From the IMG/VR virus record IMGVR_UViG_2703718775_000013: DNA of 64,000 bases. One strand, written 5' to 3'. Positions 3,608-55,693 of the stretch are shown in pieces; position 1 is the stretch's first letter, and the number at the start of each line of letters is the position of its first letter. A model generated the notes under the pieces. That model was not told where the DNA came from, made no database searches, and worked only from the letters and a program-made list of their open reading frames with translations. The stretch comes from a virus. Taxonomy: Duplodnaviria > Heunggongvirae > Uroviricota > Caudoviricetes. A program made the translations under genes and the position numbers.

Positions 3608-4272
3608 ACTTGCCGGGTACGTCTCCGGCGAGGGCTTCCACCTCCGTATGCTTTTCGGCGCACCGCGCCCTGGCTGCAATTCGGTAACAGGGGATGCATA
3701 ACCCTGGCTTCCAGCGTGATTAGCGCCTTCAGCATGACGGGATATACCCGTAAATTCGTGGAACTGTACCCAAAGTGCTGTTAAGCACCGCTGTTACGCT
3801 GAAAAGAAAACGCAACAGGAAAGGACGCTGACCAACAGATGGCCCCTTCTCGTTCATCTGGTTAATCACACCAGCGCCCTTACCTGTTGTGCCTCCCCGT
3901 TCCCTAATACACAGACGGGGACACTCTGCGGTCGATTTTTTGACGGGGGACGACTCATACCCCATGGCATCTGGCTTCTTAGGCCGCTACCATCATCAGA
4001 TCATCGTTTGCATTTACTTTAATGGTCAGTTTCTAAACCGCCGCAAAGTCGCTAACCATGACGAAAACCCTGAAAAAAACGCCCACCCGAAGATGGGCAA
4101 ACTGGACGCTCGTAACGCACTTCGGCGTTGCCACTTAGGCGCATGGTCAACCTGGCAACTCGGTGGTTTGTCTGGGAGGACTAGGCCCAGCCATGCTTAC
4201 CGCCGCGCCTGTCGCGGCTAACAGCTAAATCGCTCTATAAATCACGATTCATTGAGGTAATATTACACTAAT

Positions 4273-4289
4273 AAATTTATTAGAGCAAT
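4273..4289. promoter_or_regulatory. C1 repressor operator-like site (perfect match to reverse complement of ATTGCTCTAATAAATTT)
   Basis: AAATTTATTAGAGCAAT read directly; sits at the head of the minus-strand leader/tRNA/ban operon, analogous to the P1 ban-operon operator. Confidence 0.7.
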
Positions 4290-7200
4290 ATACCCAAAAC
4301 GTCATGAGCTACACCTCGAGTGTCCCCCTTACAAGACACAGAACGTCTGGCAAAAAGAGGTTCCACTCTGAAGCCACTGTCATGATAAAGCTCTCTGATG
4401 TTTGGCGCGCCACTGTTAGTAATGAGAACCTTTGCACCTCGACGATGAGCATCCGTCAACAGAGACACCAGGCGTTTTTGCTCTTCAAACTTAAAGTCAT
4501 GACCGGAATAGTTCGTGAATCCCTCTGTATTTGGAAGCGGTTCATACGGCGGATCGCAAAAGATGACATCTCCTTCTCCGGCAGCTTCAATCACCGCTGC
4601 AAAATCACCGCATACAAACTCAGACCGCCCTTCCGCACCGAGGAAGGCTTCCATCTCCTGTAATGGGAAATACGGAGTTTTATACTTCCCATAACCGACA
4701 TTGAACTCACCGGCCTGGTTGTAACGCGTCAATCCGTTAAAACAATGTCGGTTCAGGAACAAAAACGCCGCTGCGCGATGTAAATCATCATAGACTTGTT
4801 TGTTAAACGCATTCCGTACTGCCAGGTATCCTTCCTGTGTGTTGTAGTCCTGGAAGAAACGATGTGCCAGAGTGATAAGTGAATGCGCCTCGCGTTGCAG
4901 AGTCTTGTAAAAGTTAATCAGGTCAGCATTCACATCATTTAGCAGATTTTCCTGGTATCCGGCATTCATGAAGACAGCTCCGCCACCAACGAAAGGTTCA
5001 ATCAGGCGCTTCCCTTCTGGCAAATAGCGAAAGATTTGTTCCAGAACACCAAATTTTCCACCAGCCCATTTGAATATGGACCGTTCGAATTCTGCCGCTG
5101 GTTTAACTTTTCGCTCTTTTGTTTCACTTCCTTCTTTCTGCCGACATACGGCCTTAGTAATCCGATCGCCAATCCAGCGCATTACTGGTATTGCCATACT
5201 ATTGCCGATCGCTTTGTAACGCGGTCCGTCAGCTGCAAGCATTGCGGCCTCTTCTTCGCTTAAATCTGGATAGTGATTGTGCAGATATGCCAGTTCATCT
5301 GAATTAACTTTTTTACGCTTTTCCGTAGGGATCAACGTATGCCAATCAGGAAAACCTTGCAGCCTTTCACATTCGACAGGGGTAAGACGGCGCATTCTAC
5401 CGTCGCCGAGCAATACAATTGGTGCTTCATGGTTACATGTCAAAGTTGGTGCCGAATTATCGGTTTTTATCTCAGCCCCTCCTTGCCCATGTGCCATGGC
5501 AATTATGTTTGTATCATCGCAAGTTCTGATAGCGATGTTTGAAGTATATCTGGTAGTTTCCTTCCCCTCGCCTCTGCTCGGCGCAATATTCCGGCGCACG
5601 CCTTCGAACTCAAAAAGTACCGTTGCGGGATCGAGATCTGTTCGAGCACTTGCGACAACAAACACGCGTCGGCGTCGTTGTGCCACTCCGAAGTATTGGG
5701 CATCAAGGATTCTCCAGGCCACTTTTCGCTGCGGTCCATAAATACAACCACACTGCGGCCACTTTGGAACATGGCAACCGGTTTTGCCATCCCACCGCCA
5801 GAACGCGTTGCTTTTTCCTGATTCAGGTCGATCACCTGGTTCAAATGGCACATCTTCTCCAGCCAATCCGGCAAGGAAACATCCGAAGGCGTTATCTGCC
5901 GATGACAAGACTCCTGGGACATTTTCCCAGACGATAACGGCTGGTTTGAGAAATGACTCAGCCCGTTTGTCGTCAATTGCATTTGCAAGCTCCACATACT
6001 TTAAAGTTAGCGCGCCACGCTCATCATCAAGCCCACCACGTAATCCCGCGATACTGAATGCCTGACAGTTATGGACCACCGCACCATTGAGGATATAGGA
6101 ATGATCACCTTCGACTTCTATGTTGTATACAGTATCTAGGCCTACCGATTTAAACTCTTTGACTGTTCGTAAAAGCATTCCATGAGCCAATCTTGATTTA
6201 CGTGACAATTTCTGCGGGCAGATTGTTACCTGATAATAATTCCGTTGATTTACCACGCGATCCTCGATCACTTTTTTGGGCTCAACTTCAATAAAGCTGA
6301 CCGAAGAAACATAACCACAAGTCTGTGACAACCCCGCAACGCCCCAAGCAAGCGCAGAACTAACACTATTAATTCTAAATCCCGCTTTACCACTTGGTGT
6401 CCCATCAGTATCAAGATAGCCTTGTAAAAACACATGACGCAATGGATGCGACATCACCCATGCAGGGATACGCTTAGCATGGCTTAACTCGCCAAAATGT
6501 TCATTAAGCCAATTGGCATAACACGTATCATTCAAGGTTACTTTGATGCTCCCTCGGATTTCGCTTGCCACGGAAAATATGTTTTCTGGTATGCGGCAAT
6601 GAAACTTTCTCAATTTCTGGCAATTTATGCCAAAAACAACCGCCTTCTTAGATTTACCTCTCCATCTCCTAATATATCCATCGCCAACATAAGCGCCCGC
6701 AAGATACATAGCCTGTTCTTCAGACAAGAACCGAGAACAAATATCTGGAAATGCAATATTGAAATTAGTTAGAGCGCACCATTGATATCCCGGCATATCA
6801 CATGCTGCTCGCCATTCCGGTTCAGACAACAACTCTCTCTTAAAATATGTGCCATTTTTCCGGGTGTTTTGGGCTTTCCACCGAACAGCCAGGAAGGGAT
6901 GGTCATTGGTTGTTCTTATACCTAAAGGCTGCCCAACGGCATTAAGTAACCCCGTATTAGCTATTTTTGAACCAACTCTTTTTACTTGTTGTAACCGCCC
7001 GAGATGACTGACTACGTAATCACCAGGGCAAACATTTTCTATTGGTTTATAGCCATTTTTACAAAGAACCATATGCCCCGCGGTAAAACATGGTGTTCCC
7101 CCGACGAGCACGTCAGGGGATTCGATTTCCCCAGCCAAGACTTTTTTGGCAAGTTTTTTCATGTCGCCAAGGTTGGCAACATGGGGCCAGCGGAGCGCAA

Positions 7201-7321
7201 GAACGGCCGATGGAAAAGGCTCGATTTCAGCAAACCACGCCGGACGCATACCCAACGGTTCCCAGGCAATACTCGCGGCTTCAATTCCACTGCAAACAGA
7301 TCCATAGCACAGCTCTTTCAC
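4280..7321 (-). CDS. dmt: bifunctional DNA methyltransferase: N-terminal C5-cytosine MTase (interrupted by an intein) fused to C-terminal Dam-like N6-adenine MTase
   Basis: 1013-aa ORF. C5-MTase motifs: GGTP|...|CQAFSIAG (split motif IV), VIVWENVPG (ENV), QRRRRVF, GNSM. C-terminal domain has FxGxG-like EPFVGGGAV and DPPY. Start ATG overlaps rdgC stop (ATGA). Confidence 0.85.
6068..7090 (-). other. intein with LAGLIDADG homing-endonuclease domain (residues 78-418 of Dmt precursor)
   Basis: Starts with Cys (CFTAGHMVL, block A), block [11 protein letters not shown], two LAGLIDADG-type motifs [11 protein letters not shown] and [11 protein letters not shown]-terminal [21 protein letters not shown] followed by +1 Cys; excision rejoins GGTP + CQAFSIAG. 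Confidence 0.8.
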
Positions 7322-8223
7322 TGCTTAGCCTCTCCGCCAAGGGCATTTACCAGAGCATCAACCAGGCACGAAATTTCACTGGTCAACAGGAAGAAATCTG
7401 CGTCCAGTCGCTGCGCAACATCTTCACTATCAATATCAGAGTTCTGCTCAAGCAATTCATCCGCAAATTTGACGCTGGTAAGGCTGAAGTTATGGTCCAG
7501 TGTAAATTTAATGCGGTTCTGCCAGTCGAGTGCCAACTTAGTGACGAGCTTGCCAGCTTCCAGGTGTGTGGAAATTTCATCGCTTCCCAAATCCTGCTTT
7601 TTCACTCGGGCAATACCGCCATCCTCAAGCACTGCCTTAAGTTCTGCCGCATCCCCCATTTGAAATCCCTGTGGAGCACTACCATCACGTACCCAGTCGG
7701 TCAGCGTTAATTCAATGGGATTTTCAACACTCAGGGAAACAGCAGGAAGAGAACCCAGAGACTTACGCATAAGCGCGAGCATATCCTCTGCCTGCCGCGC
7801 GCTGGCATTGATATAGATACGTTTAGTTGAACCGTCGTAGATCGCCTGGATAACAGAAAACTTTGAAAAAGCCCGTGGCAGAAGAGAATGCAGAACTTCG
7901 TCTTTCAGGGAGTCCTTCTCTGTTTTCTTCAGTTTACGCGCTTGTTCTTGCTCAAGTTTTTCAATTTTTTCTTGAATAGCTCGCTGGATAACCGGCGGGG
8001 GAAGAATTTTTGTTTCGCGCTTTGCTTCAACAAGGATAAAACCATTTCCATGCATAGCGATAACTTCAGAATTATCACCAAATGGCGATACAAAACCGAA
8101 CTTGGCCATATCCTGACTACCGCATGGCGTGAAAAGGATCATTTTCTTTTTATCTTCTAAGTCGGTCAGATCCGCCTCACGAGAAAGTTTATAAATAGTA
8201 ATGTTTTTCCAGTGCTTAAACAT
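7318..8223 (-). CDS. rdgC: recombination-associated protein RdgC homolog
   Basis: From ATG at 8223: [16 protein letters not shown]...[17 protein letters not shown]...[24 protein letters not shown]...[30 protein letters not shown], collinear with E. coli RdgC; upstream ORF stop overlaps its start. Confidence 0.8.
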
Positions 8224-8572
8224 GTTGTAACCCTTGAATATCAACCACAGAAAGCTCGTCTTTGTAGAAAAAGGCCAGGTTGTGGCACCCCCTCGTTTGA
8301 GCGTATGAGCTGGGACCAATTTCGTTCTTCCAGACAAATGGCTTCAAATCCGTACGGCGAAGCATAAAAACGCGATTTATTCCGCTCTGATTCCCAATGA
8401 GGCAAAAGCCTTCTTTCACCTTGATAGCCTGCAAGTTGTCGAGTTCACCGCTGGTTACACGGCTATCGAACTCTTTGCGGCTTATTAGCTCCATCTGCAT
8501 CTGACGACTCCAAACAAATGCCCATTGAAGGGCGATGGCTGAATGGTACCGAAAATACGACATAAAAAACAA
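8216..8572 (-). CDS. hypothetical protein (first gene of rdgC-dmt operon)
   Basis: 118-aa ORF, stop overlaps rdgC start (translational coupling); start may be ATG at 8572 or 8563. Confidence 0.5.
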
Positions 8573-8588
8573 TATTTATTAGAGCAAT
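8572..8588. promoter_or_regulatory. C1 operator-like site (16/17 match)
   Basis: ATATTTATTAGAGCAAT at the 5' end of the minus-strand operon and in the divergent intergenic region. Confidence 0.6.
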
Positions 8589-8669
8589 TTTGCGATAAGT
8601 AAACGCCATACAGACCACAAATAACCTAAGTTAAAATAACGAAAATCAGAGCAAATAATTGGTGATGGC

Positions 8670-8954
8670 GTGGCAAGCATTGCAACAAAAGACAGCATTT
8701 GTTCGGGGCACGGAGGATTCCCATCCAGGCCTCCTGTAGAGAGTGAACCACTACTTAAAGTCAACGGAGTCGAAGTGTTAGTTGATGGTAAGCAATATGC
8801 ACAGCATACCGATGGAAACAGTACGCACGGTGGGCAAGCTATATCAACCAGGGCATGGTTTACCGTCAATGGTAAAGGGATCGTATGCGTTGGTGACCCT
8901 GTTTCATGCGGATCTACCGTAGCGTCCGGAGACGGCCTGGTTCAGGTAAGTTAG
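8670..8954 (+). CDS. PAAR-like small protein (possible spike-tip protein)
   Basis: 94-aa ORF with Gly/Cys/His pattern CSGHGG...VNGVEVLVDG...THGG...CVGDPVSCGSTVASGDG reminiscent of PAAR-repeat proteins; assignment by motif only. Confidence 0.4.
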   Translation: MASIATKDSICSGHGGFPSRPPVESEPLLKVNGVEVLVDGKQYAQHTDGNSTHGGQAISTRAWFTVNGKGIVCVGDPVSCGSTVASGDGLVQVS

Positions 8955-8962
8955 GAGATATC

Positions 8963-9751
8963 ATGCTGGAAAAAGACTACCAGTTATCCGCATATAAAAA
9001 ATTGGCCGCCGCCGGTGGGATGAAAACACCTGGTGCCATAACATCGGCACGAAACAGTGCTAACACAGCAAAACTGCTTGCAGAAGAATTGACCGGATTA
9101 ATTCTGGATACAATTGTCTATCCCGACACTATTACCAGCTATGTTTCAACGATCAGAACAACCACAACCGGCTTAACGAACATTGGAGAACTGGCAACTA
9201 AGCACGCGGACCTGTTGGCTGGTTATGCAGATCTGTCAATGCTGCTTCAACTCGATATTGGTTGGGATGTTTACTGCCGTGCTAATGAGCGAGAAGTTTC
9301 AGAACTGCCGATCTCTATTGCCATTGGTGATGTGAATATTACTAAATCGCTTGAGGACGCTGTTAACGCGCTTAATACATCAAGTTTAGTCGCTGCAATG
9401 GGGGAGATTAACCAGGCCCTTAACACTGGCTCAGAAAGCTCGTCAGGCTCTGGTTCAGGCGGCGGCACTGCCACTCCCCCACCAGCACTAACAGAAGAGC
9501 AAATTGAATCTCTGAAAGTAGCAACTGAACAGTTTGGGGTTGTTTTCAACCAGACAACAGCACCCACAACTGCGTTACAACAGCAGTATGAACGAGCGAA
9601 TGAAAGCGCCAACGTAGCCATAACTGCTTATAACCATGCTATCGGTACCGCGCTTGCGGAAGCATCAGCAAATAAGGCCAGCACAGCCAGCGCAGTCGCC
9701 GCTTTGGTTCCTGATTCTGTTCTTGATGAATTAAACAAAGCGGCACGGTAA
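8963..9751 (+). CDS. hypothetical protein with Ser/Gly-rich linker
   Basis: ATG at 8963 preceded by AGGAGA; 262 aa (ORF track gives a longer 8906 start). Confidence 0.6.
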   Translation: MLEKDYQLSAYKKLAAAGGMKTPGAITSARNSANTAKLLAEELTGLILDTIVYPDTITSYVSTIRTTTTGLTNIGELATKHADLLAGYADLSMLLQLDIGWDVYCRANEREVSELPISIAIGDVNITKSLEDAVNALNTSSLVAAMGEINQALNTGSESSSGSGSGGGTATPPPALTEEQIESLKVATEQFGVVFNQTTAPTTALQQQYERANESANVAITAYNHAIGTALAEASANKASTASAVAALVPDSVLDELNKAAR

Positions 9752-9790
9752 CAAAGGACTTCATTGATAATTTTTCTTCAGGAGGAAGAC

Positions 9791-10213
9791 ATGTCATTCT
9801 TTTCTACGTTAAAAACAGCTTTGTCTTTGAAGGAGAAACTTGCTGCTACTGGTGTTCTTGTTCTGATTTGCGCACTTGTTGGTGCTGGGTTTGCATGGGA
9901 ACGTCATCAGCTAAAGCAAGCCATGGAGAAAATTGGCAGTCTTGATCAGGCTGTTAAGGAACGTGATAAGTCAATAATGGATCTTAACCAGACCATTGAG
10001 ACGATGAACAAAGCAGAGCAACATTTTCACAGCCAGGAAGTGAAAAATGAATCAGAACAAGCCAAATATGCTGACAGGCAAATGGAACGAAAAGCTGAAG
10101 TTCAGAAACAACTGGTTGCGGCGGGTAATGTTCGCCAGCGCATTCCTGCTGACACTCAGCGGTTGCTCCGGGAGTCGATCAGCGAATTTAACGCCGACGC
10201 CGACAAAGGTTAA
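9791..10213 (+). CDS. i-spanin (Rz-like)
   Basis: ATG at 9791 preceded by AGGAGG; N-terminal TM helix (ATGVLVLICALVGAGFAW) followed by coiled-coil-like charged region; overlaps an out-of-frame lipoprotein ORF. Confidence 0.65.
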   Translation: MSFFSTLKTALSLKEKLAATGVLVLICALVGAGFAWERHQLKQAMEKIGSLDQAVKERDKSIMDLNQTIETMNKAEQHFHSQEVKNESEQAKYADRQMERKAEVQKQLVAAGNVRQRIPADTQRLLRESISEFNADADKG

Positions 10214-10379
10214 CCACCCTGCCCCCAAAAGTGCGTTTATGTGCAGGATGCCAGAGTTTAGCAGTGAATATTTTGATGATCTGCCAGCGTATATCCTCGA
10301 TACAGAAACGATGCTGATGGGGATTAACAGGAAGAATCGCAACGTTAATGATTACAACCGCGCTATCAGCGGTAACTAA
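10068..10379 (+). CDS. o-spanin (Rz1-like outer-membrane lipoprotein), overlapped with i-spanin
   Basis: Alternate frame inside and beyond the i-spanin gene; signal peptide plus lipobox LLTLSGC, Pro-rich mature part (TPTPTKVNHPAPK). Start could also be ATG at 10128. Confidence 0.6.
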   Translation: MLTGKWNEKLKFRNNWLRRVMFASAFLLTLSGCSGSRSANLTPTPTKVNHPAPKSAFMCRMPEFSSEYFDDLPAYILDTETMLMGINRKNRNVNDYNRAISGN

Positions 10380-10390
10380 AAGGGATTTTT

Positions 10391-10783
10391 ATGTCTGATA
10401 AAGTAACAGTAAAGCAAACTATCAACAAAGCGACTTCAATTTACAAAATTGAGCACATCACTGTTGGCAAGCCAGGATCTGAACAATACCGTCATGCTTT
10501 CGAGCTTGCCGATCAGCTTGGTTTAAAACACCCGGATTGCATCGAGCATGTATTTCCGACCTATGCTGATGAGCAATGTACTCATGTTCTTACCGAAGAG
10601 GATTTTTTCAGCACTGAAGAACGAGAAGGCGTTGATCGCTGCATTGGTGTGATTTGCTCTTCAGTGAGTTATGAGTTATTCCCTAATGTCCATGAAAATG
10701 GTGGTATTGGATACCAATTCCTGTACGAAGGCGATGAGCTTAAATGTTATGAACATGGTCTTCTTATCGAAAGCGTAGAATAA
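10391..10783 (+). CDS. hypothetical protein
   Basis: 130-aa ORF with RBS-like spacing, followed by hairpin plus T-run. Confidence 0.6.
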   Translation: MSDKVTVKQTINKATSIYKIEHITVGKPGSEQYRHAFELADQLGLKHPDCIEHVFPTYADEQCTHVLTEEDFFSTEEREGVDRCIGVICSSVSYELFPNVHENGGIGYQFLYEGDELKCYEHGLLIESVE

Positions 10784-10825
10784 TACCCTTCCTTCCAACC
10801 GGCTATGTTGGCCGGTTTATTCAAC

Positions 10826-10905
10826 TTATCCACAGCATAGATCCAATAAACAGATCCTAAAGAGAACCCAGGAAGATCCAAAGAAGATCCCGGATCGCTG
10901 TAAGC
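10826..10905. promoter_or_regulatory. oriR-like origin core: DnaA box TTATCCACA (10826-10834) and cluster of five GATC sites
   Basis: Perfect DnaA box consensus and GATC-rich segment directly upstream of the iterons and repA, as in P1 oriR. Confidence 0.7.
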
Positions 10906-10936
10906 CGCGCCATTTCTGGCCTGAAATGGGATCAAC

Positions 10937-11058
10937 ATTGACTATACGCGATTTTATGTTGACTGTGCACGATTTATTGTTGACTGCACGCGATTTATTG
11001 TTGACTATATGCGACAGAAACATTGACTGTACGCGATTTTAGAGCCTGACTATTCACA
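10937..11058 (+). repeat. origin iterons (five to six direct repeats of about 21 bp, TTGACT(A/G)T(A/G)(C/T)(A/G)CGATTT)
   Basis: TTGACT motif recurs at 10938, 10959, 10980, 11001, 11023 (21-22 bp phasing) immediately upstream of repA. Confidence 0.85.
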
Positions 11059-11116
11059 GTTGTTGATAACTGCAATCCAGATGACGCCAGGCCGCGCCAC
11101 ATATGGAGAAACCACG

Positions 11117-12001
11117 ATGCTGGAAGAAAATAAAGGCTTCCTTAGCGTTGAAGAAGTTGCAGGAAATACAGGAGAAATCCACAGCCTGAAACCCAATAAC
11201 AATAGCACTATACAACCCATTGCTTTGTTGCGCTTAGGTGTGTTTGTGCCAACCTTAAAATCTACCAATGTGGCACTACGTCGCGGATCGTCAGTTACTA
11301 CAAACACAACGAACGCAACCGAAGAACTATCAAGCCTCAAAATTGTTGAGCAGGAAGGCTATGAGGGAATTGAAATTCATGGTCCACGCCTGGATATGGA
11401 TACTGATTTTAAGGTGTGGGTGGGCATAACCTCCGCGTTGTTTGACTACGCACCTGATGATGACGGCATAATCACCCTGCCATTCTCCGAGTTTGCCGAT
11501 CGATGCGGCTATCCACGTAAGCGCCTTTCAAAGGCGTTCCGTAAAAGTATTGATGACTCTCTGACACGCATTCAGCAGACAGTTGTCAAATTCCGCTTCC
11601 CGGCGGCAAAAGGTCATCTCAATAACATTAACGTCAACTTGTTGGCATATAGCAGCCTGAATACCGAGCTTGATGTTATCGAGATCCAGCCGCAGAAACA
11701 GCTATCTGAACTTTACTATGTTGACTATAAGCGAATCCTGAAGCTGAAGATGCTGGATAAGCTCGGGCGCAAAGAGACGGCCAAGGTACTGTATACATTC
11801 TTTGAGGCTCTACCCGCCAACCCGGCACCTGTCAGCATTGAGCGCCTTAGAGCAAGGCTTAATCTCAAATCATCCGTTAGCGTGCAAAATAGCGTTATCA
11901 GAAAAGCCATGAAAGATTTGGAAGCTATTGAATATCTTAAATTTTCAGAGATAAAAAACGGCAGGAAAATCGGCTTTCAGATCCATAAGCGCAATCCATA
12001 A
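11117..12001 (+). CDS. repA: plasmid replication initiator RepA (iteron-binding)
   Basis: ATG at 11117 with GGAG 9 nt upstream; protein contains LRLGVFVP...HGPRLDMDTDFKVWVGI segment as I recall for P1 RepA; flanked by iteron arrays on both sides. Confidence 0.8.
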   Translation: MLEENKGFLSVEEVAGNTGEIHSLKPNNNSTIQPIALLRLGVFVPTLKSTNVALRRGSSVTTNTTNATEELSSLKIVEQEGYEGIEIHGPRLDMDTDFKVWVGITSALFDYAPDDDGIITLPFSEFADRCGYPRKRLSKAFRKSIDDSLTRIQQTVVKFRFPAAKGHLNNINVNLLAYSSLNTELDVIEIQPQKQLSELYYVDYKRILKLKMLDKLGRKETAKVLYTFFEALPANPAPVSIERLRARLNLKSSVSVQNSVIRKAMKDLEAIEYLKFSEIKNGRKIGFQIHKRNP

Positions 12002-12003
12002 TA

Positions 12004-12259
12004 TTGACTATATGCGATAGCGAGAAGTTGACTATAGGCGACATTCGTTGACGCTGGTGGATTTTTGCTGGCGTCAATATTCTGCAAGTCGCTATTGAGA
12101 TGGCTTTTAGGGTCATTTCATCGCGTATAGTCAACGTTTCTCCCGACAATATCTTACATAGTCGATCTTTGGTGGAGTTAAATCGACTACAGTCAACTTT
12201 TGACTGTAGTCACATCGCGCATAGTCAACTATTCACATTAACTTTCGCGCATAGTCAAC
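12004..12259. repeat. incA-like control iterons (about nine copies in both orientations)
   Basis: TTGACTATATGCGA, TTGACTATAGGCGA and reverse-orientation CGCG(C/T)ATAGTCAA copies downstream of repA. Confidence 0.8.
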
Positions 12260-12293
12260 ATTTGCGCGGTTCTCATCAAGCAGTGGTATTGAT

Positions 12294-12629
12294 ATGCAAG
12301 AAGAGAAACAACACTACCTCTACGTTCTGGTGCCGGAGAACGGAGATACTTTTAAAATCGGCATTTCATGTGGTCCATTGGCACGGTTTAAAGGGCTACA
12401 AGTGAGTCCCGATTTTGCGCTTTCACGGGTCTATCGTGGTACGCGTTTGGCAATGGTTAATCTTGAGCGGGCTTTACACGCAACCTTTTTCCCCTGGAAT
12501 GCGCCGTGGGAGAAAAGCGCCGGTGGCGGGCATACTGAATGGTTTACACGAGAGTGTCTTGATAAGGTTTTGGCTCATATCGAATATCTAAATGATATGT
12601 GGGGAGGGATTCTCGAGCGCATTAAGTAG
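12294..12629 (+). CDS. GIY-YIG-like (T5orf172-type) domain protein
   Basis: 111 aa; N-terminal YLYVLVPENGDTFKIGIS followed by conserved R, H and EWF, the pattern of T5orf172/GIY-YIG-like domains; motif-level inference. Confidence 0.5.
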   Translation: MQEEKQHYLYVLVPENGDTFKIGISCGPLARFKGLQVSPDFALSRVYRGTRLAMVNLERALHATFFPWNAPWEKSAGGGHTEWFTRECLDKVLAHIEYLNDMWGGILERIK

Positions 12630-12698
12630 AATGATTTACTTCAGCGTCCAGTAGATGCTGCTCGCTCTTTCGAAAAAGAACTGGATGTTACTTCTATC

Positions 12699-13103
12699 GT
12701 GACTTTCAAAGATGACGCAGGAATGAGGGACGTGGCTTATGTCTCCATATCTGGCTATGAACCGGACGCGATCCGCGCTCAATGTGAATTGCTGAAAGCA
12801 ATGTTTATGCTTCGGACTAAATATCCCTGGGAGACAGGGCGGGTGTGCTTCCCTATGGAAGAGTTAACCGCCACCATTGATTCTCAGCTTTACCACGATA
12901 ATCCAGAGAAGTTTTTTAGCCTTTTAGCCGGTAATGGGCTTAACTGTGTGTCCGGGCTGGGGCGAAGTAGAATCCAACATGCCTCGCTCTTCGGTCCCTT
13001 CTTTTACGATCGACACGGGTACTTTGAGGCTGAACTTCCGGCGCTTACGCGTGCTATAGATACTATCGATTTCGAACGATTATTCGCTGCTCTTAGCAAA
13101 TAA
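12699..13103 (+). CDS. hypothetical protein
   Basis: 134-aa ORF followed by strong rho-independent terminator. Confidence 0.55.
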   Translation: MTFKDDAGMRDVAYVSISGYEPDAIRAQCELLKAMFMLRTKYPWETGRVCFPMEELTATIDSQLYHDNPEKFFSLLAGNGLNCVSGLGRSRIQHASLFGPFFYDRHGYFEAELPALTRAIDTIDFERLFAALSK

Positions 13104-13107
13104 CACT

Positions 13108-13132
13108 GATGCCCCTGAACGGGGCTTTTTTG
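13108..13132 (+). terminator. rho-independent terminator
   Basis: GCCCCTGAACGGGGC hairpin followed by TTTTTT. Confidence 0.75.
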
Positions 13133-13271
13133 TGCCTTTCTTGTAACTCTCAATCGTGCAAAATGAACAAAACATGCAGAGAATGCCATGTACAAGCATC
13201 TACGCATACATTATTATTTTATGCAGCATTTTTAATTAAATTCAAAAATACAGCATAAAGGATGACTTTCG

Positions 13272-14468
13272 ATGAGTGATTCCAGCCAGCTTCACAAGGT
13301 TGCTCAAAGAGCAAACAGAATGCTCAATGTTCTGACTGAACAAGTACAGTTGCAAAAGGATGAGCTACACGCGAACGAGTTTTACCAGGTCTATGCGAAA
13401 GCGGCACTGGCAAAATTGCCTCTACTGACTCGAGCGAACGTTGACTATGCCGTAAGTGAAATGGAAGAAAAGGGTTATGTTTTCGATAAACGCCCTGCTG
13501 GCTCTTCAATGAAATATGCGATGTCAATTCAGAACATCATTGACATATATGAACATCGCGGAGTGCCAAAATACCGGGATCGCTACAGCGAAGCGTATGT
13601 GATTTTCATCTCCAATCTTAAAGGCGGTGTGTCAAAAACTGTATCGACGGTTTCTCTGGCGCATGCAATGCGTGCTCACCCTCATCTTCTGATGGAAGAT
13701 TTAAGGATTCTGGTTATTGACCTTGATCCGCAATCTTCAGCAACGATGTTTTTAAGCCATAAACACTCTATTGGTATCGTAAACGCAACATCTGCACAGG
13801 CTATGTTGCAGAATGTAAGCCGTGAAGAGCTGTTAGAGGAGTTTATTGTTCCTTCTGTTGTACCTGGGGTTGACGTTATGCCTGCGTCGATTGACGATGC
13901 CTTTATTGCATCCGATTGGAGAGAGCTGTGCAATGAGCATCTACCGGGTCAGAACATCCATGCTGTCCTGAAAGAAAATGTGATTGATAAGCTGAAGAGC
14001 GATTATGACTTTATCCTCGTTGATAGTGGTCCTCACCTTGACGCCTTCCTGAAAAATGCTTTGGCCTCGGCCAATATACTGTTTACACCTCTGCCGCCAG
14101 CAACTGTCGATTTCCACTCATCGCTTAAATACGTTGCCCGCCTTCCTGAGTTGGTGAAACTCATTTCGGATGAAGGCTGCGAGTGCCAGCTTGCGACTAA
14201 CATTGGTTTTATGTCCAAGTTGAGTAACAAGGCAGATCATAAGTATTGCCATAGCCTGGCTAAAGAAGTGTTCGGTGGGGATATGCTCGATGTCGTCCTC
14301 CCTCGCCTTGACGGTTTTGAACGTTGCGGCGAGTCTTTTGACACTGTTATTTCAGCTAACCCGGCAACGTATGTTGGTAGTGCTGATGCATTGAAGAACG
14401 CGCGAATTGCCGCGGAAGATTTTGCTAAAGCAGTTTTTGACCGTATTGAATTTATCAGATCTAACTGA
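13272..14468 (+). CDS. parA: partition ATPase ParA (type Ia)
   Basis: 398 aa; deviant Walker A NLKGGVSKT, N-terminal DNA-binding extension; sequence and length as I recall for P1 ParA. Confidence 0.9.
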   Translation: MSDSSQLHKVAQRANRMLNVLTEQVQLQKDELHANEFYQVYAKAALAKLPLLTRANVDYAVSEMEEKGYVFDKRPAGSSMKYAMSIQNIIDIYEHRGVPKYRDRYSEAYVIFISNLKGGVSKTVSTVSLAHAMRAHPHLLMEDLRILVIDLDPQSSATMFLSHKHSIGIVNATSAQAMLQNVSREELLEEFIVPSVVPGVDVMPASIDDAFIASDWRELCNEHLPGQNIHAVLKENVIDKLKSDYDFILVDSGPHLDAFLKNALASANILFTPLPPATVDFHSSLKYVARLPELVKLISDEGCECQLATNIGFMSKLSNKADHKYCHSLAKEVFGGDMLDVVLPRLDGFERCGESFDTVISANPATYVGSADALKNARIAAEDFAKAVFDRIEFIRSN

Positions 14469-14484
14469 GGAGTAAGAAACCCCC

Positions 14485-15486
14485 ATGTCAAAGAAAAACA
14501 GACCAACAATTGGGCGAACCCTTAATCCTTCAATATTAAGCGGATTTGATAGTTCTTCAGCCTCTGGCGATCGAGTCGAGCAGGTATTCAAGTTATCAAC
14601 TGGTCGCCAGGCCACATTTATTGAAGAGGTAATACCTCCGAACCAGGTAGAAAGCGATACCTTTGTTGATCAGCATAACAACGGGCGTGACCAGGCATCT
14701 CTTACGCCAAAATCATTAAAAAGTATCCGAAGCACTATTAAGCATCAGCAATTTTACCCTGCAATAGGTGTTAGACGGGGTACAGGGAAAATTGAAATTT
14801 TGGATGGTTCCCGGCGTCGAGCTTCTGCCATCTTAGAGAACGTAGGGTTGCGGGTTTTAGTCACGGACCAGGAGATCAGCGTTCAGGAAGCGCAAAATTT
14901 AGCGAAAGACGTTCAGACAGCATTGCAGCACAGCATTCGAGAAATAGGTCTGCGTTTGATGCGAATGAAAAATGATGGGATGAGTCAGAAGGATATTGCA
15001 GCCAAAGAAGGGCTGTCTCAGGCTAAGGTCACGCGTGCTCTCCAGGCAGCGAGTGCTCCGGAAGAATTAGTCGCCCTTTTCCCTGTGCAGTCGGAATTAA
15101 CCTTTTCGGACTACAAAACGCTTTGTGCTGTTGGCGACGAAATGGGGAACAAGAATTTAGAGTTTGATCAGCTTATTCAAAACATATCCCCGGAAATAAA
15201 CGACATCTTATCCATTGAAGAAATGGCCGAAGATGAAGTTAAAAATAAAATCCTGCGCTTGATAACAAAGGAAGCCTCACTACTCACGGATAAAGGTTCT
15301 AAAGATAAGTCCGTAGTTACTGAATTATGGAAATTTGAGGACAAGGATCGCTTTGCAAGGAAGCGCGTGAAAGGCCGTGCATTTTCTTATGAGTTTAATC
15401 GACTTTCAAAAGAGCTACAGGAAGAACTCGACAGGATGATTGGGCATATCCTTAGAAAGAGCCTCGATAAAAAGCCGAAGCCTTAA
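14485..15486 (+). CDS. parB: partition protein ParB (centromere-binding)
   Basis: 333 aa; immediately downstream of parA and upstream of parS. Confidence 0.9.
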   Translation: MSKKNRPTIGRTLNPSILSGFDSSSASGDRVEQVFKLSTGRQATFIEEVIPPNQVESDTFVDQHNNGRDQASLTPKSLKSIRSTIKHQQFYPAIGVRRGTGKIEILDGSRRRASAILENVGLRVLVTDQEISVQEAQNLAKDVQTALQHSIREIGLRLMRMKNDGMSQKDIAAKEGLSQAKVTRALQAASAPEELVALFPVQSELTFSDYKTLCAVGDEMGNKNLEFDQLIQNISPEINDILSIEEMAEDEVKNKILRLITKEASLLTDKGSKDKSVVTELWKFEDKDRFARKRVKGRAFSYEFNRLSKELQEELDRMIGHILRKSLDKKPKP

Positions 15487-27887: not shown

Positions 27888-28478
<591 letters not shown>

Positions 28479-28488
28479 GGGGGCTGAT

Positions 28489-29100
28489 ATGGGGCTTAAT
28501 GTTGCTTCAGTAAAGTCTTATGTATCTTCGGCATTAACGACGACATTATTTGGCTCCGGCGTTGGTGAGCGGGAAGTTGGTAAGCTGACGTCAATCATCA
28601 TGAACAAAATGCTGTTCGCGCAAGGATGGCAGTTCTCTGTCGAAGTTGATGGTCTGGAGGGGGCAGACTTCTTTGCCAAAGACATTACCTACCACGATTA
28701 CAGCATCGAATATGAAACGATTAAAATAGGCGGAGGGAATATCCTTCAGCCAACGGAGCGTTCGCCTGGGCAGATAACAATGATGGTCAGGGATACCGTT
28801 GATGGCCTCGTTTTGGACTGGTTTAAGACGGCAAAAGGTCGGGTGATCAATCCGGACGGTACCGGGAATATACCGTCTAAATATTTGCTCAATGTGCGTA
28901 TTTATCGGTTGCTGTCCTCCGGTTTAACCAAACTGGAAAATGAGATGACGGTATTCCCGGTCACTACCGGCGATGTCACCTATGCGCGGGATCAGGTTAC
29001 GGAATTTAAGTCATTCCCAATGACCTTCGCATTGCACAGCACGTTTAACCAATCCTCAAGTTCTTTAGCTTCCCTTCTGGGCTTTAGTTTTTCTCTTTGA
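28489..29100 (+). CDS. virion morphogenesis protein (function unassigned)
   Basis: 203-aa ORF, tightly packed in the same operon. Confidence 0.6.
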   Translation: MGLNVASVKSYVSSALTTTLFGSGVGEREVGKLTSIIMNKMLFAQGWQFSVEVDGLEGADFFAKDITYHDYSIEYETIKIGGGNILQPTERSPGQITMMVRDTVDGLVLDWFKTAKGRVINPDGTGNIPSKYLLNVRIYRLLSSGLTKLENEMTVFPVTTGDVTYARDQVTEFKSFPMTFALHSTFNQSSSSLASLLGFSFSL

Positions 29101-29114
29101 ATTAAGGAGCAAGG

Positions 29115-29996
29115 ATGCTTTTACCTCTTTTCCCGCTACCATCGCGGCCAACTGAATTGATCCAGTTCCGTCAGCCAAATATTGCTGATGCGATGCGTTT
29201 CAACTCGATAACACCGGAGGAACAAGAACAACAGACAACGGCGTATTTAAAAGCCTTGCTGGCTGAACCCGCGAAATATGATCCCCTGACATGGACGGCG
29301 CAGGACCGGATTACCGCGTTATGGTGGATATTTACTGGCTCCCGTGAAACACCGGTCGAGACATTCACCTACACCTGTAAACATTGCGGTAAAGAGCATT
29401 ATTACGATTGCGATATGAATGCTCTGGCTGAAGATATCCAGGTCCTGGAAGTGGAACCGTTCATTGACGATATTGAGGTGTCTGTAGAGGGCGTGCCTTA
29501 TCAATGGCGTATCGTGCCGCTTGATGGTTGGGCAATGGAAATGCTGGAGATGCGCCGTGCAGCATTGCCACCTGAAGACGACGCGGAATTCAAAGAAGCG
29601 ATCGTTGATTTGCGTTTTTGGGAATTCGCTTATCAGTGTGAACTTTATAACGATGTTAGCGGTACTCGTGAAGAGCAGGCTGAGCGTCGTTATGAAACGA
29701 TCAAACGGATGGCCATTGATACTGAATTTATGAAGCTGGCGGCACACATCCGACTGGCTCATGAAAAGCTCGAACATGGTTTACCGTGCTACATCGATAA
29801 AGGCGAAATGCGTCTTCGTCTCCCGCCGCACAAATGCCCAAACCAGGATAAAAAGGAGTCCACAGAGGGTGCGTATACCCGTCTGTGGGTGCCCTTTCGG
29901 GCTACCGACTTCATTCCACAGGTGGGGATTGAAAAGCTATCAGACCTTAGTGTCCAACCTGGTTTTGTATGGGGGTATACCGATTCAGGACGCTGA
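29115..29996 (+). CDS. virion morphogenesis protein (function unassigned)
   Basis: 293-aa ORF upstream of sit. Confidence 0.6.
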   Translation: MLLPLFPLPSRPTELIQFRQPNIADAMRFNSITPEEQEQQTTAYLKALLAEPAKYDPLTWTAQDRITALWWIFTGSRETPVETFTYTCKHCGKEHYYDCDMNALAEDIQVLEVEPFIDDIEVSVEGVPYQWRIVPLDGWAMEMLEMRRAALPPEDDAEFKEAIVDLRFWEFAYQCELYNDVSGTREEQAERRYETIKRMAIDTEFMKLAAHIRLAHEKLEHGLPCYIDKGEMRLRLPPHKCPNQDKKESTEGAYTRLWVPFRATDFIPQVGIEKLSDLSVQPGFVWGYTDSGR

Positions 29997-30077
29997 AAGG
30001 CTCACTGAATCCTATGCGTTTTTCCTGTTGGAGAAACTGGAAGAAAAACTTAAACCGAAGCGGTAGGCGATAAGATC

Positions 30078-33000: not shown

Positions 33001-33500
33001 CAGCTGGCAATGTGTATGTTGATACACCTATGCCAGTTGAAGAGGCACGTCCGGTGGCCAACAACTCAAGTTACTTTGACCAGCTCGGCGCACAAATGGG
33101 GATTGATGGACTGTATGACAAACTCATTAATGCCCGGGGAATGCGCTCAAATAATTCTCCTCAACCAGACTCCACGCCCCAGGTGACGACTGCCGCCAAC
33201 GATTTGCAGCAACCAACCGGTCGTATGCAGATAGACGGGCAGGTTATTAGTGACCTTGGCGGTTCTGGTGCCAAGCCGACAATGCAGTTGGCTGATAATA
33301 CCGTTTCACTTGATGGTGAAACGAAGCGGCTGTTTGCGCAGATGACCTCATTGCTTGCCAGGATTGAAGAGCACACCAAAGACTCGGCGAAAGGCCAGGG
33401 AACTGTCGTAAAGGTCAGCACGCCTCAACCGGGCGTTATGCGCACGGTGCCACTGTCAATTGATGATCCGTTGATGAATGACTACGCGAGAGTTGATTGA
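30078..33500 (+). CDS. sit: tape-measure-like protein with lytic transglycosylase (SLT) domain, P1 Sit-like
   Basis: 1140 aa; coiled/Gly-rich N-terminal part; SLT motif region ATESGGDPNA...GGALGMFQFT...AYNAGFG. Confidence 0.85.
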   Translation: MERKNANIDDVIRTVETASAKELEELAGIREAVEDLKGGRVATVDPVSRSVSALNRTIENSRPDFVAKAPSVDPIVDAMKRLNLGDVSRVVQEDVAQQEQRAKSTTQKGKKRRRKAIPEDVKAQRTEAAEHAREMFGQKGGAQKSQNQRDARGRFIGKSGSKAAAEDARAERAEKARRKEDDERLNAESGLLKKLSKVAEGIGNPSETRAVDALGYAVAGPLWAAGKELGGISKEVGGSLNGARKSIADVIRGNDDNSRRKGFFRRKSQNSADVVQVNTQKRTVQELQEQTSEIKEGNDKILRALDQIAKNTGKKKGGLLSKLFSLLGKGAGGVASLLMGRGMLKKAGALAFGALGAKKLVGMLRGGGKKTLAHEGGDLAARAAGKLGLKAVGKGALRAIPLVGTVAGGIYGAVTGWNDTEAQRRAFGLKSGQDPSFQQKAAYTLANVLDMGGLVSGISSAIGEVLKSLGFEDIGNMLQSFSTESIAQAIDSGITNLETYISNLGDTISTKFDDYTAKIGDAVSAWFSDTSNKLLEKLDAIKDFFTVDNLKQVFSDAIDSAIDFIKNPGKHIKEAAGNIWDGVKNLPGKALDAAVDAVKNTPAAMIVSKIPNPIGEANAKEITPELKAPVNSHQETSDSKTESDAKQTNIVTRVINAALDTAKDSNKTVKETANQIINANAVETGNSALQKIDKAIGQNSSSSSSLNTTGTRNDIQKAADTYNNGNLDVKVGSLGAEGKANLDKLAPYFAELENKYSLPEGTLYAIAATESGGDPNAKSTLTRSPNGKLSGGALGMFQFTSVAREETGLSREDSFNPEKSAEAAALLMSKYLKQANGDLNEAITAYNAGFGTINKWKKGTGDLSKENREYAIKVNTHRARYLGGEIYTPGAGAQGGAQFGVRGPLPDNAVIDQSTGLAFTPGDSPFEKGGLVDKIGNAVGVNDLVNKFMNGRGMRREVVQGTLEERARGRGTATAAGNVYVDTPMPVEEARPVANNSSYFDQLGAQMGIDGLYDKLINARGMRSNNSPQPDSTPQVTTAANDLQQPTGRMQIDGQVISDLGGSGAKPTMQLADNTVSLDGETKRLFAQMTSLLARIEEHTKDSAKGQGTVVKVSTPQPGVMRTVPLSIDDPLMNDYARVD

Positions 33501-33856
33501 TGGCCAACAATAACGAAATTGATCCTTTACTGACGCTGGAGTTATCCGGCGTAAAAACGTATGAGTCCCAGGAGGAGGCCTGGGGCGCTCGTTTATATGA
33601 GTGGCTAAACACTTATCAGGGTGAGGTATACGGAGATCCGTCATGGGGCAATGTTTTACCGCAGTTTAAACACGAACCGACCAACTTGTCGCATGTTCAA
33701 ATTGCGGTTGAGGCAATGCTGTTGCAAAAACTGACGGTAGATTTACCTGACATACCGATTTCTGGCTTGTCAGTAGCCGAGGGAGATGCTTTTGATAAGT
33801 TGAAAATATCCATTCGTATCAGGGATATAACTATCACACAGGACGTGGTGCTATGA
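33497..33856 (+). CDS. baseplate/tail assembly protein (small)
   Basis: 119-aa ORF with ATGA overlap to sit stop. Confidence 0.6.
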   Translation: MMANNNEIDPLLTLELSGVKTYESQEEAWGARLYEWLNTYQGEVYGDPSWGNVLPQFKHEPTNLSHVQIAVEAMLLQKLTVDLPDIPISGLSVAEGDAFDKLKISIRIRDITITQDVVL

Positions 33857-40074: not shown

Positions 40075-40117
40075 AAGGATAAAGCCATCGATAGAAATAT
40101 TGATGGCTTCATGTACT

Positions 40118-41414: not shown

Positions 41415-41445
41415 CATTACCTCCTGACAACGTAGGAGGGAACTT

Positions 41446-41775
41446 GTGCTTGACACACAGGAATTAGCTCCAGTTGCTATTGCGCTCCTGCTTTCAGTAA
41501 TTGGTGGGATAGGCACGTTCCTGATGGATGTCCGAGACGGTCGCCAGTCTGGCAATTTGTTGGGATTGGTTACGGAGATCTTTGTTGCAGTGACAGCTGG
41601 CGCGGTGGCGTACCTATTGGGGCAACACGAGGGCTGGGAGTTATCAATTACGTACTTAATGGTAACGATAGCCAGCAATAACGGTCATGAGGTGATTTCA
41701 GGGATGAAACGAGTGAATATCGATAGCATTCTGAATGTTCTTACAAGTTTGGTGAAAAAGGGAGGTGGGAAATGA
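41446..41775 (+). CDS. lydA: holin LydA-like
   Basis: 109 aa with hydrophobic TM segments, followed by overlapping lydB-like gene; layout of recalled P1 lydA-lydB. Confidence 0.65.
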   Translation: MLDTQELAPVAIALLLSVIGGIGTFLMDVRDGRQSGNLLGLVTEIFVAVTAGAVAYLLGQHEGWELSITYLMVTIASNNGHEVISGMKRVNIDSILNVLTSLVKKGGGK

Positions 41776-42215
41776 TTGGCTGGGGTGTATGCGCTCTTGC
41801 GTTAGCCTTAGCCGATCGCTATTTGCTAAAACGCAAGGACATCACGCATTTAGAACTTGGTGATGTGGAAATTAAACCGGGTTTCATCCGGGTGCCGTTC
41901 AAATACCGGTCTAAATTCCCGTTTTTGCGCGGCGCAACGGTCAGATATTGGATCCGCGATGTTCAGAAGCCAACGACAGTGATTGAAGGCGAACAACGTT
42001 GTCTGACGTCGGCTGAACAGGGCGAAAACAGTGAATGGTTGTACATACCCACTGAATATATGGGTAAAGGAGAACGGCTGTGGCATTTCAACGTCATGGT
42101 TACGCATGGCGACTCGTTCATTAACCCGTTGTATCGGATTTTCCCTGTTACTCAGCAAATCCGCAGAAGTTACGTAATAAATCTCGCACAGGATGTGTCA
42201 GATGACGAAAAATAA
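41772..42215 (+). CDS. lydB: antiholin LydB-like
   Basis: 147-aa ORF overlapping lydA stop by 4 nt. Confidence 0.6.
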   Translation: MIGWGVCALALALADRYLLKRKDITHLELGDVEIKPGFIRVPFKYRSKFPFLRGATVRYWIRDVQKPTTVIEGEQRCLTSAEQGENSEWLYIPTEYMGKGERLWHFNVMVTHGDSFINPLYRIFPVTQQIRRSYVINLAQDVSDDEK

Positions 42216-51980: not shown

Positions 51981-52113
51981 AATGTATATCTTTGAAACGT
52001 AGCTAACAAGTGATTTGCATTATCCTGTGCCTTCTAAAGGGATCGAGTCAGTCGGTATTGGCTGTGAATGGGTGTTTGTCCTGGAGCGTAAAAAATTCGC
52101 TTATGAGGTCTTT

Positions 52114-52671
52114 ATGAAGGGAAAAACAGCCGCAGGAGGCGGTGCAATTTGCGCTATCGCGGTGATGATTACCATCGTGATGGGTAATGGCAATGTGCGA
52201 ACCAACCAGGCGGGGCTTGAGCTGATTGGTAACGCTGAAGGTTGCCGACGTGATCCATACATGTGCCCGGCGGGGGTATGGACTGACGGGATCGGTAATA
52301 CACACGGGGTAACGCCGGGTGTGCGAAAAACCGACCAGCAAATCGCCGCTGATTGGGAAAAGAATATCCTGATCGCTGAACGCTGTATTAATCAGCACTT
52401 TCGGGGCAAAGACATGCCCGATAATGCCTTCAGTGCAATGACAAGCGCGGCATTCAATATGGGATGCAATAGCTTACGGACCTACTACAGCAAAGCGCGA
52501 GGCATGCGAGTCGAAACGTCCATCCACAAGTGGGCGCAGAAAGGGGAATGGGTGAATATGTGTAACCATCTCCCTGATTTTGTGAACAGTAACGGCGTGC
52601 CCCTGCGAGGTTTAAAGATTCGCCGTGAAAAAGAACGCCAGCTTTGCCTGACGGGGCTGATCAATGAATAA
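52114..52671 (+). CDS. lyz: SAR endolysin (T4-lysozyme family), P1 Lyz-like
   Basis: From ATG 52114: MKGKTAAGGGAICAIAVMITIVMG (Gly/Ala-rich signal-anchor-release segment) then glycosidase core; 185 aa. Confidence 0.85.
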   Translation: MKGKTAAGGGAICAIAVMITIVMGNGNVRTNQAGLELIGNAEGCRRDPYMCPAGVWTDGIGNTHGVTPGVRKTDQQIAADWEKNILIAERCINQHFRGKDMPDNAFSAMTSAAFNMGCNSLRTYYSKARGMRVETSIHKWAQKGEWVNMCNHLPDFVNSNGVPLRGLKIRREKERQLCLTGLINE

Positions 52672-52918
52672 ACTCCGGCAGCTCCGCCGACTTTCGACAA
52701 TGAAGTTATCGCTGGCGGCGATAGTTTTCGACTCGATTTTCATGGCGGTATATGTGCTCAATGAGACGTGGCCACTGGAACCGCTATTATATGCCGGGCT
52801 TCGGCTGTGCCTGACATTTTTGAGCATGGCTGCAAGATTGATGCAGCAGAAAGAAACCGCTTCAGATTGCCCACGTCGCGCGGTGCGCAAATATATGGCA
52901 CGCAGACGAAGGCGATAA
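52664..52918 (+). CDS. small membrane protein downstream of lyz (possible lysis accessory)
   Basis: 84-aa ORF overlapping lyz stop, TM segment, Arg-rich C-terminus; followed by terminator. Confidence 0.45.
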   Translation: MNKLRQLRRLSTMKLSLAAIVFDSIFMAVYVLNETWPLEPLLYAGLRLCLTFLSMAARLMQQKETASDCPRRAVRKYMARRRRR

Positions 52919-52930
52919 TAGTTAACGATA

Positions 52931-52957
52931 ACCCCGGCAGCCGCCGGGGTTATTTTT
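52931..52957. terminator. rho-independent terminator between convergent lyz and pro operons
   Basis: ACCCCGGCAGCCGCCGGGGT hairpin followed by TTATTTTT. Confidence 0.75.
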
Positions 52958-52962
52958 GATGG

Positions 52963-55693
<2,731 letters not shown>

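Follow-up and report, generated by a model that had tools for sequence, protein, structure and literature searches.

A block of spike-tip, tripod and predicted spanin genes in a P1-like phage-plasmid, apart from the baseplate operon and from the holin and endolysin loci

The stretch of DNA analyzed here (64 kb in its entirety, hereafter the window) raises the question of whether a small PAAR-like protein and an overlapped gene pair of the Rz/Rz1 type, which are encoded together but far from the genes for the baseplate, the holin and the endolysin, are indeed a tail spike tip and a pair of spanins. An earlier note on this DNA had described a 94-aa PAAR-like ORF, a 262-aa protein, an i-spanin, and a lipoprotein ORF that overlaps the i-spanin gene out of frame and extends past it; all four ORFs were found where the note placed them, and the description is accurate in every particular. 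The window belongs to a P1-like phage-plasmid. Escherichia phage vB_EcoM-Ro157c2YLVW matches positions 8400-10800 with 100% identity and P1 with 95.8%, the range across P1, P7, SJ46, RCS47 and other Punavirus records being 95.5-97.9%. The matching stretch of the P1 reference record carries upfC, upfB, ppfA, mlp and upfA, with the divergent uhr-hrdC-dmt operon on one side and the plasmid origin oriR/repA on the other, and the block in the window, upfC-upfB-ppfA-mlp(-upfA), is its equivalent. We read this block as encoding the spike tip (UpfC), the tripod protein (UpfB) and an overlapped two-component spanin (PpfA-Mlp), and assign to this reading as a whole a probability of about 0.85. Everything in the observation of the earlier note has already been published for phage P1.

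The surroundings of the block were mapped by tblastn with the P1 proteins (Table 1). On the minus strand, the window carries ban (partial), dmt, hrdC and uhr; after uhr, the order is upfC, upfB, ppfA, mlp, upfA, repA, parA, parB, and then genes 23, 22, 21, pmgG and bplB. Downstream of the tail-fibre genes R and S, the map shows lydA/lydB, lyz, pro, prt and darB. The last gene of the co-directional block, upfA, is syntenic in Cronobacter phage JK004 and was scored as non-essential in P1 by CRISPRi (PMC10695390).

Table 1. Coordinates of the block, of a neighbouring operator, and of the tail and lysis loci in the window
Feature	Position	Strand	Remarks
C1 repressor operator (= P1 Op68/Odmt)	8572..8588	-	transferred from P1 annotation (L001 2673-2689)
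upfC, 94 aa, PAAR / T4 gp5.4-type tip of central tail spike	8670..8954	+	GTG start
upfB, 262 aa	8963..9751	+	97% identical to P1 UpfB; phrog_1559 1.2e-137 (function unknown)
ppfA, 140 aa, predicted i-spanin (type II inner-membrane, helical periplasmic domain)	9791..10213	+	
mlp, 110 aa, predicted o-spanin (outer-membrane lipoprotein)	10047..10379	+	ATG start, +1 frame relative to ppfA
upfA, 130 aa, last gene of the co-directional block	10391..10783	+	97% identical to P1 UpfA; phrog_1453 (function unknown)
baseplate/tail operon, pmgC to gp16	27912-36119		tblastn map of P1 proteins
tail-fibre gene R	36201-36632		tblastn map of P1 proteins
tail-fibre gene S	from 36647		tblastn map of P1 proteins
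lydA (holin) and lydB (antiholin), second lysis locus	41446..42215	+	tblastn, 100% and 98% identical to P1 LydA/LydB
lyz (SAR endolysin), lydD and lydE, third lysis locus	52114..52983	+	tblastn, 99.5%, 100% and 89% identical to the P1 proteins

The two overlapping genes carry the features expected of a two-component spanin. For ppfA, the best start is the ATG at 9791, which follows an AGGAGG and is the same start as in Kongari et al., whereas the ORF finder had chosen a TTG at 9764 that gives 149 aa. The hydropathy of PpfA (Kyte-Doolittle, 19-residue mean) peaks at 2.35 over residues 17-35, with Lys8, Lys14 and Lys16 on the N-terminal side of the peak, and no second hydrophobic segment was found in the protein by the same measure; the single N-terminal transmembrane helix and the N-in/C-out orientation are those of an i-spanin. 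In a single-sequence AlphaFold2 model (mean pLDDT 81), PpfA forms a helix from residue 4 to 116 and, after a break at RIP, a second helix from 120 to 138, so that the periplasmic domain is predicted to be mostly alpha-helical or coiled-coil, as is typical of i-spanins; the low pTM of this model (0.39) is to be expected for an extended rod. PpfA matches phrog_89 (1.5e-25) as well as PHROGs 739 and 214, all of which are labelled 'Rz-like spanin'.

The mlp gene starts downstream of an AGGAAG, shares 167 nt with ppfA, and continues for 166 nt beyond the ppfA stop codon, which is the architecture of overlapped spanin genes. Its product has a 39-aa signal peptide that ends in the lipobox LSGC, with the lipobox cysteine at position 40, a serine at +2, a second cysteine at 66 and seven prolines, and the mature protein of 71 aa begins with a Pro-rich segment. 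Given the serine at +2, there is no inner-membrane retention signal; a lipobox cysteine, the lack of Asp at +2 and a short mature protein rich in proline together point to Mlp as a predicted o-spanin. Mlp matches phrog_30284 (2.2e-77) and phrog_456 (4e-5), both annotated as 'Rz-like spanin'. Furthermore, in a crude scan of all six frames of the 64-kb window for lipoprotein signals (start codon, basic N-region, hydrophobic core and lipobox), mlp was the sole hit.

These are the genes that have been listed as the spanins of P1. In Table S1 of Kongari et al. 2018, P1 (NC_005856) appears with the architecture 'ovl', the i-spanin gp064, the o-spanin gp063 and a family of its own name, 'P1', and Bednarek et al. 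2022 described the P1 spanin genes as partly overlapping and named the pair from predicted features (PMC9025707). Nothing of substance differs between the P1 pair and that of the window, in which the genes start and overlap in the same way and the lipobox is shared. PpfA has 99.3% identity to its counterpart in NC_005856 and 100% to those of several other P1-type records; for Mlp, a comparison of the 39-residue signal sequence with that of reference P1 shows two differences, Ser7Asn and Val32Ala. We note that Bednarek et al. 2022 (PMC9025707) label ppfA as the o-spanin and mlp as the i-spanin; the sequences show the opposite.

The relationship to the classical spanins of lambda and P2 appears to be one of function and design rather than of sequence family. 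In a BLASTP comparison, lambda Rz had no significant similarity to PpfA (E 0.26), and the match between Mlp and Rz1 (E 0.007) involves only the signal peptide, the lipobox and the Pro-rich start; PpfA and Mlp thus fall outside the lambda Rz/Rz1 sequence family. Under the curated cut-offs of NCBIfam, they do not belong to the P2 LysB/LysC family either, to which the similarity is weak only: the LysB model TIGR03495 matches PpfA with an E-value of 0.0013 but a score of 19 bits against a cut-off of 92.75, and NF038368 scores 14.3 bits against 27. Given this weak or insignificant similarity to the lambda and P2 proteins, PpfA-Mlp is predicted to be the functional equivalent of Rz/Rz1 in a sequence family of its own. 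Like PpfA and Mlp, the lambda Rz/Rz1 and P2 LysB/LysC pairs consist of a type II inner-membrane helical protein and a small Pro-rich outer-membrane lipoprotein, with the lipoprotein gene placed, in another reading frame, in the 3' part of the gene for its partner, and P2 has the same overlapped layout as ppfA/mlp. In contrast to both, ppfA and mlp lie outside a lysis cassette, 31 and 42 kb from the holin and the endolysin genes, Mlp combines a mature part of 71 aa with a 39-aa signal peptide, and the periplasmic part of PpfA is devoid of cysteine. Lambda Rz has two periplasmic cysteines.

Under this prediction, PpfA would be anchored in the inner membrane by its one N-terminal helix, with the long helix spanning the periplasm, and Mlp, after export, would receive its lipid on Cys40 and be directed to the outer membrane. 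The holin LydA would free the SAR endolysin Lyz, leading to degradation of the wall, after which the PpfA-Mlp complex would be expected to bring about fusion of the two membranes and so complete lysis. We infer the lipidation of Mlp, its interaction with PpfA, the membrane fusion and the timing of expression; the gene structure, the homology and the conservation of both overlapping frames are direct observations.

The distances to the other lysis genes agree with those given in the earlier note, which had put the holin about 31 kb and the endolysin about 42 kb away and had concluded that the lysis functions are split across three loci. The start of lydA is 31.1 kb from the end of mlp (with lydB at 41772), and the start of lyz is 41.7 kb from it (with lydD at 52664). 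The layout with three loci, evident from the map of the window, is known for P1, where the spanin operon is unlinked to both lyz-lydD-lydE and lydA-lydB (Bednarek et al. 2022; PMC9025707).

A late-promoter pattern, AAGTNA-N7-TANNNT, which was derived from the annotated LPlyz and LPdar, has 8 hits in the window compared to 1.85 expected, and P1-type late promoter hits are found before lydA (41399-41417) and before lyz (52008-52026). Before upfC, the strict pattern has no hit, the nearest being a one-mismatch site at 8628-8646, and a scan of positions 8200-11100 for generic sigma-70 promoters and terminators performed no better than on shuffled sequences. The divergent uhr-upfC intergenic region contains a C1 operator, ATATTTATTAGAGCAAT, to which the annotation ascribes control of the leftward dmt operon. 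The main text of a preprint on P1vir in a delta-hfq background holds nothing specific on these genes.

The genomic setting and the published knock-down data are relevant to an alternative, namely that PpfA and Mlp are envelope proteins unrelated to lysis, which would act, for example, as a lipoprotein system expressed by the prophage for superinfection exclusion or envelope remodelling or, together with the spike tip, as accessories of entry. In a CRISPRi study of P1, knock-down of ppfA gave a plating efficiency of 1.3 and that of mlp 0.24, and both genes were scored as non-essential for plaques, unlike Rz of lambda, which was scored as essential in the same study (PMC10695390). The position of the block beside the plasmid replicon and the lack of a strict late-promoter match before it are in line with such a role, as are the annotation of P1, in which only predicted sigma-70 promoters (P1ppfA and P2ppfA) are given, and the co-directional arrangement with genes for virion entry proteins. 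However, the two proteins have the anatomy of a complete two-component spanin, both match spanin PHROGs and show weak similarity to LysB/LysC, the window contains no other ORF with a lipoprotein signal, and the pair is recorded as the P1 spanins in the survey of Kongari et al. Moreover, ordinary assays hide spanin defects, which are masked by shear (PMC9025707). On balance, we consider a role of PpfA and Mlp outside lysis unlikely.

A related possibility is that the block of spike tip, tripod and spanin genes is regulated apart from the other late genes, and that PpfA-Mlp may not be needed for lysis, or may have a further function connected with crossing of the envelope at entry. The basis for this suggestion is that the block has no strict Lpa-type late promoter and is adjoined by the C1 operator and the plasmid replicon. 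We regard this combination of claims as doubtful and rather improbable; if true, the block would be an 'envelope-crossing' operon and not a stray piece of a lysis cassette. A predicted spanin pair that acts in lysis from a separate locus remains our preferred reading of ppfA and mlp.

For the first gene of the block, the assignment is supported by a solved structure. UpfC is identical in 93 of 94 residues to chain A ('UpfC') of PDB 9vyi, a P1 baseplate structure (E 1.7e-60), and the GTG start of upfC is also the start of the deposited chain. It further matches T4 gp5.4 (PDB 5iv5, E 8.6e-8; 5iv5 and 4ku0 at about 1e-7), the PAAR protein 4jiv_D (E 3.7e-4), and 9f4b_BA (E 4.8e-10), a 97-aa chain that its depositors named 'Phospholipase', as well as phrog_281 (2e-30). 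The Pfam model PAAR_motif (PF05488) scores 26.4 bits, 0.6 bit under the gathering cut-off of 27. This homology to family models and solved members places UpfC among the PAAR / gp5.4 proteins. The motifs GH(14), H46, THGG(52-55) and DPxSCG(76-81) are conserved with T4 gp5.4; of these, GH14, H46, T-H53-GG and S-C80-G are identical in T4 gp5.4 and 9f4b_BA and are also kept in JK004. Conserved His and Cys residues near the vertex of the PAAR cone reportedly form a metal site, and the pattern in UpfC is consistent with a predicted site of this kind.

The position of UpfC in the virion is established through the structure of the 99%-identical P1 protein: in the P1 cryo-EM model (2026), a UpfC monomer is the tip on the gp5 trimer (PMC12810830). 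The suggestion in the earlier note that the PAAR-like protein could be a spike tip encoded outside the baseplate operon is accordingly well supported, upfC being 19 kb from the pmgC-gp16 operon in the window. Spike gene 5 itself is absent from the window and lies beyond its left end; in the P1 isolate OP279344, it is located approximately 10 kb from upfB. Previously, Gonzales et al. 2022 had assigned UpfC to gp5.4 by HHpred, observed no plaque defect upon deletion of upfC, and did not detect the protein by mass spectrometry of virions (PMC9024508), which can be explained by its presence in a single copy per virion. UpfC is a PAAR / gp5.4-type cone, one copy of which would cap the trimeric gp5 tail spike. 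P1 UpfC, T4 gp5.4 and the T6SS PAAR-repeat proteins have the same size (94-97 aa) and the His/Cys pattern (GH, HT, THGG and SCG) that is also present in UpfC of the window, and sit as one cone at the end of a trimeric spike of beta-helical fold. Unlike in T4, upfC is not adjacent to the spike gene, from which (gene 5) it is approximately 10 kb away in P1. Moreover, the gp5 spike of P1 has no lysozyme domain, and the P1 tip additionally bears the UpfB tripod, a part to which no T4 counterpart is assigned in the cryo-EM paper.

It could also be proposed that UpfC is a T6SS-style PAAR 'moron' that serves the host and not the virion. PHROG 281 is indeed placed in the category 'moron, auxiliary metabolic gene and host takeover', NF033420, which models the PAAR domain of T6SS proteins, matches UpfC at 4.5e-9, and the protein is missing from the mass-spectrometry list of the virion; but with 36 bits the match to NF033420 stays far under the cut-off of 124, a component present once per virion is readily missed, and the solved P1 baseplate has UpfC on the gp5 spike. 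The cryo-EM model of this P1 protein, 99% identical to UpfC of the window, already refutes the proposal, which is very improbable in our estimate.

The second gene of the block, upfB, encodes the 262-aa protein that the earlier note had placed after the PAAR-like ORF. Its ATG at 8963 has a Shine-Dalgarno sequence, AGGAG, 5 nt upstream that overlaps the stop codon of upfC, whereas the longest ORF, from an ATG at 8906, has 281 aa and corresponds to the P1 RefSeq call. The OP279344 record, phage JK004 and the end-to-end match to PHROG 1559 all favour the 262-aa form, and the RefSeq start of P1 upfB is probably 19 codons too early. UpfB had no sequence match in Pfam, NCBIfam or PDB, and a single-sequence AlphaFold2 model reached a pLDDT of 38.8, too low for the predicted fold to be of use. 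In a scan of viral contigs, the relatives listed were all close, with at least 89% identity among the 80 that were kept. By cryo-EM of P1, three trimers of UpfB were described as forming a 'tripod' attached to the tip of the spike, an assignment made from medium-resolution density only, fitted with an AlphaFold3 trimer (PMC12810830). As reported, the three trimers would hang on the UpfC tip, and UpfC and UpfB together would form the membrane-piercing end of the contractile tail. Both upfB and upfC were non-essential for P1 plaques in the genome-wide CRISPRi study (PMC10695390).

The assignment of Mlp as the predicted o-spanin presupposes that the overlapping frame is a gene, and the conservation of the locus allows this to be assessed. 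Altogether 83 loci were compared, 80 from IMG/VR (among the matches listed) together with P1, P7 and JK004, and the whole 1.7-kb module is present in 79 of them. In the Cronobacter phage JK004, the module is syntenic with protein identities of 49-78%; PpfA is 59% identical, and the out-of-frame ORF with its lipobox is kept as an unannotated 110-aa ORF that has the corresponding position and frame, the lipobox LSAC and 65.5% identity to Mlp. Among the IMG/VR and reference loci, all 27 distinct variants of Mlp are intact and have LSGC with the cysteine at position 40. Given that Met28 is replaced by Val in some variants and that Met8 is absent in JK004, Met1 is the conserved start of Mlp.

The pattern of substitutions is informative for both frames. 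Downstream of the ppfA stop codon, mlp has 25 polymorphic sites among 56 DNA haplotypes, 17 of them at its third codon positions, and the changes comprise 23 synonymous and 8 non-synonymous ones; the mlp frame past the ppfA stop is under purifying selection. In the shared 167 nt, the changes are mostly synonymous for ppfA and are absorbed by the N-region of the Mlp signal peptide. These patterns in mlp and ppfA indicate that both frames are coding. For P1 Mlp, Table S1 of Kongari et al. 2018 carries the remark 'Too long signal sequence', with LipoP cleavage at 39 and no Prosite hit. The idea that mlp is a chance open frame in and after ppfA that is not translated, which could appeal to this unusually long signal peptide, to the missing PROSITE lipoprotein call and to several database records that leave mlp unannotated, is extremely improbable and is effectively refuted already by the conservation of the frame together with start codon and lipobox in JK004 and in all variants, by the substitution pattern past the ppfA stop, and by the AGGAAG ahead of the ATG.

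These results add little to what is known of P1, except that a reading made from the sequence alone correctly recognised the P1 spike tip and the displaced spanin pair; their practical value is in annotation. In the database records of vB_EcoM-Ro157c2YLVW, OP279344 and JK004, upfC and/or mlp are either unannotated or designated hypothetical.

Directly 3' of upfA, the plasmid maintenance genes of the window (11129-15459) are only distant relatives of those of P1, with identities of 41% for RepA, 58% for ParA and 43% for ParB, compared to 97% for the adjoining upfA. The window thus has a replaced replicon and partition module, while the upfC-upfA block has remained part of the conserved phage backbone.

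The Dmt methyltransferase is also altered, with a length of 1013 aa compared to 754 aa in reference P1. The protein contains an insert that starts with CFTAGH, ends with VVHN and is immediately followed by CQAFS, and therefore is located exactly within the catalytic motif GTP|CQAFS of the C5-methylase half. Given the matches to the Pfam families Hint_2 (28.2 bits, with a cut-off of 28.4) and LAGLIDADG_3, the insert resembles an intein that carries a homing endonuclease; a literature search found no description of it. The dmt gene of the P1 isolate OP279344 is the same as that of the window (3042 nt). In addition, a middle segment of P1 Dmt (approximately aa 243-376) is replaced in the window by a divergent, shorter segment.

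Coordinates of the Dmt features and of the ORF upstream of lydA
Feature	Position	Strand	Length	Location
dmt (Dmt methyltransferase ORF)	4280-7321	-	1013 aa	
dmt insert	6068-7090	-	341 aa	Dmt aa 78-418
ORF before lydA	40118-40690	-	190 aa	low-GC stretch

No counterparts of P1 lydC (a holin homologue) or of the P1 cin invertase were identified in the 64-kb window. The region between the tail-fibre/chaperone genes and the holin gene lydA (38600-41446) includes a low-GC stretch (0.39), and the ORF within this stretch may, from the look of its sequence, encode a hexapeptide-repeat acyltransferase.

Upstream of the upfC block (8573-8669), there is no strict match to the P1 late promoter pattern; the nearest late-promoter-like site preceding upfC is AAGTTAAAATAACGAAAAT (8628-8646), in which the -10 element starts with G rather than T, and a weak sigma-70-like site is present at 8631-8659. 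This lack of a strict match contrasts with the content of the block, which encodes virion and predicted lysis proteins. Bednarek et al. (2022; PMC9025707) denoted ppfA the o-spanin and mlp the i-spanin; these labels are reversed according to the sequences and to the table of Kongari.

Annotation of this block is incomplete in several records. Both upfC and mlp are missing from the annotation of OP279344, and the block is labelled hypothetical in the record that is identical to the window in this region (Escherichia phage vB_EcoM-Ro157c2YLVW). The record of Cronobacter phage JK004 (MZ188976) leaves the o-spanin gene (3760-4092) unannotated; the sole call at this position is gene_24 (44 aa), which spans the o-spanin 3' end. 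For upfB, the P1 RefSeq start is the upstream ATG (8906), which yields 281 aa and a 49-nt overlap with upfC, whereas support for the downstream ATG (8963; 262 aa) comes from the Shine-Dalgarno sequence, from JK004 and OP279344, and from the PHROG profile.
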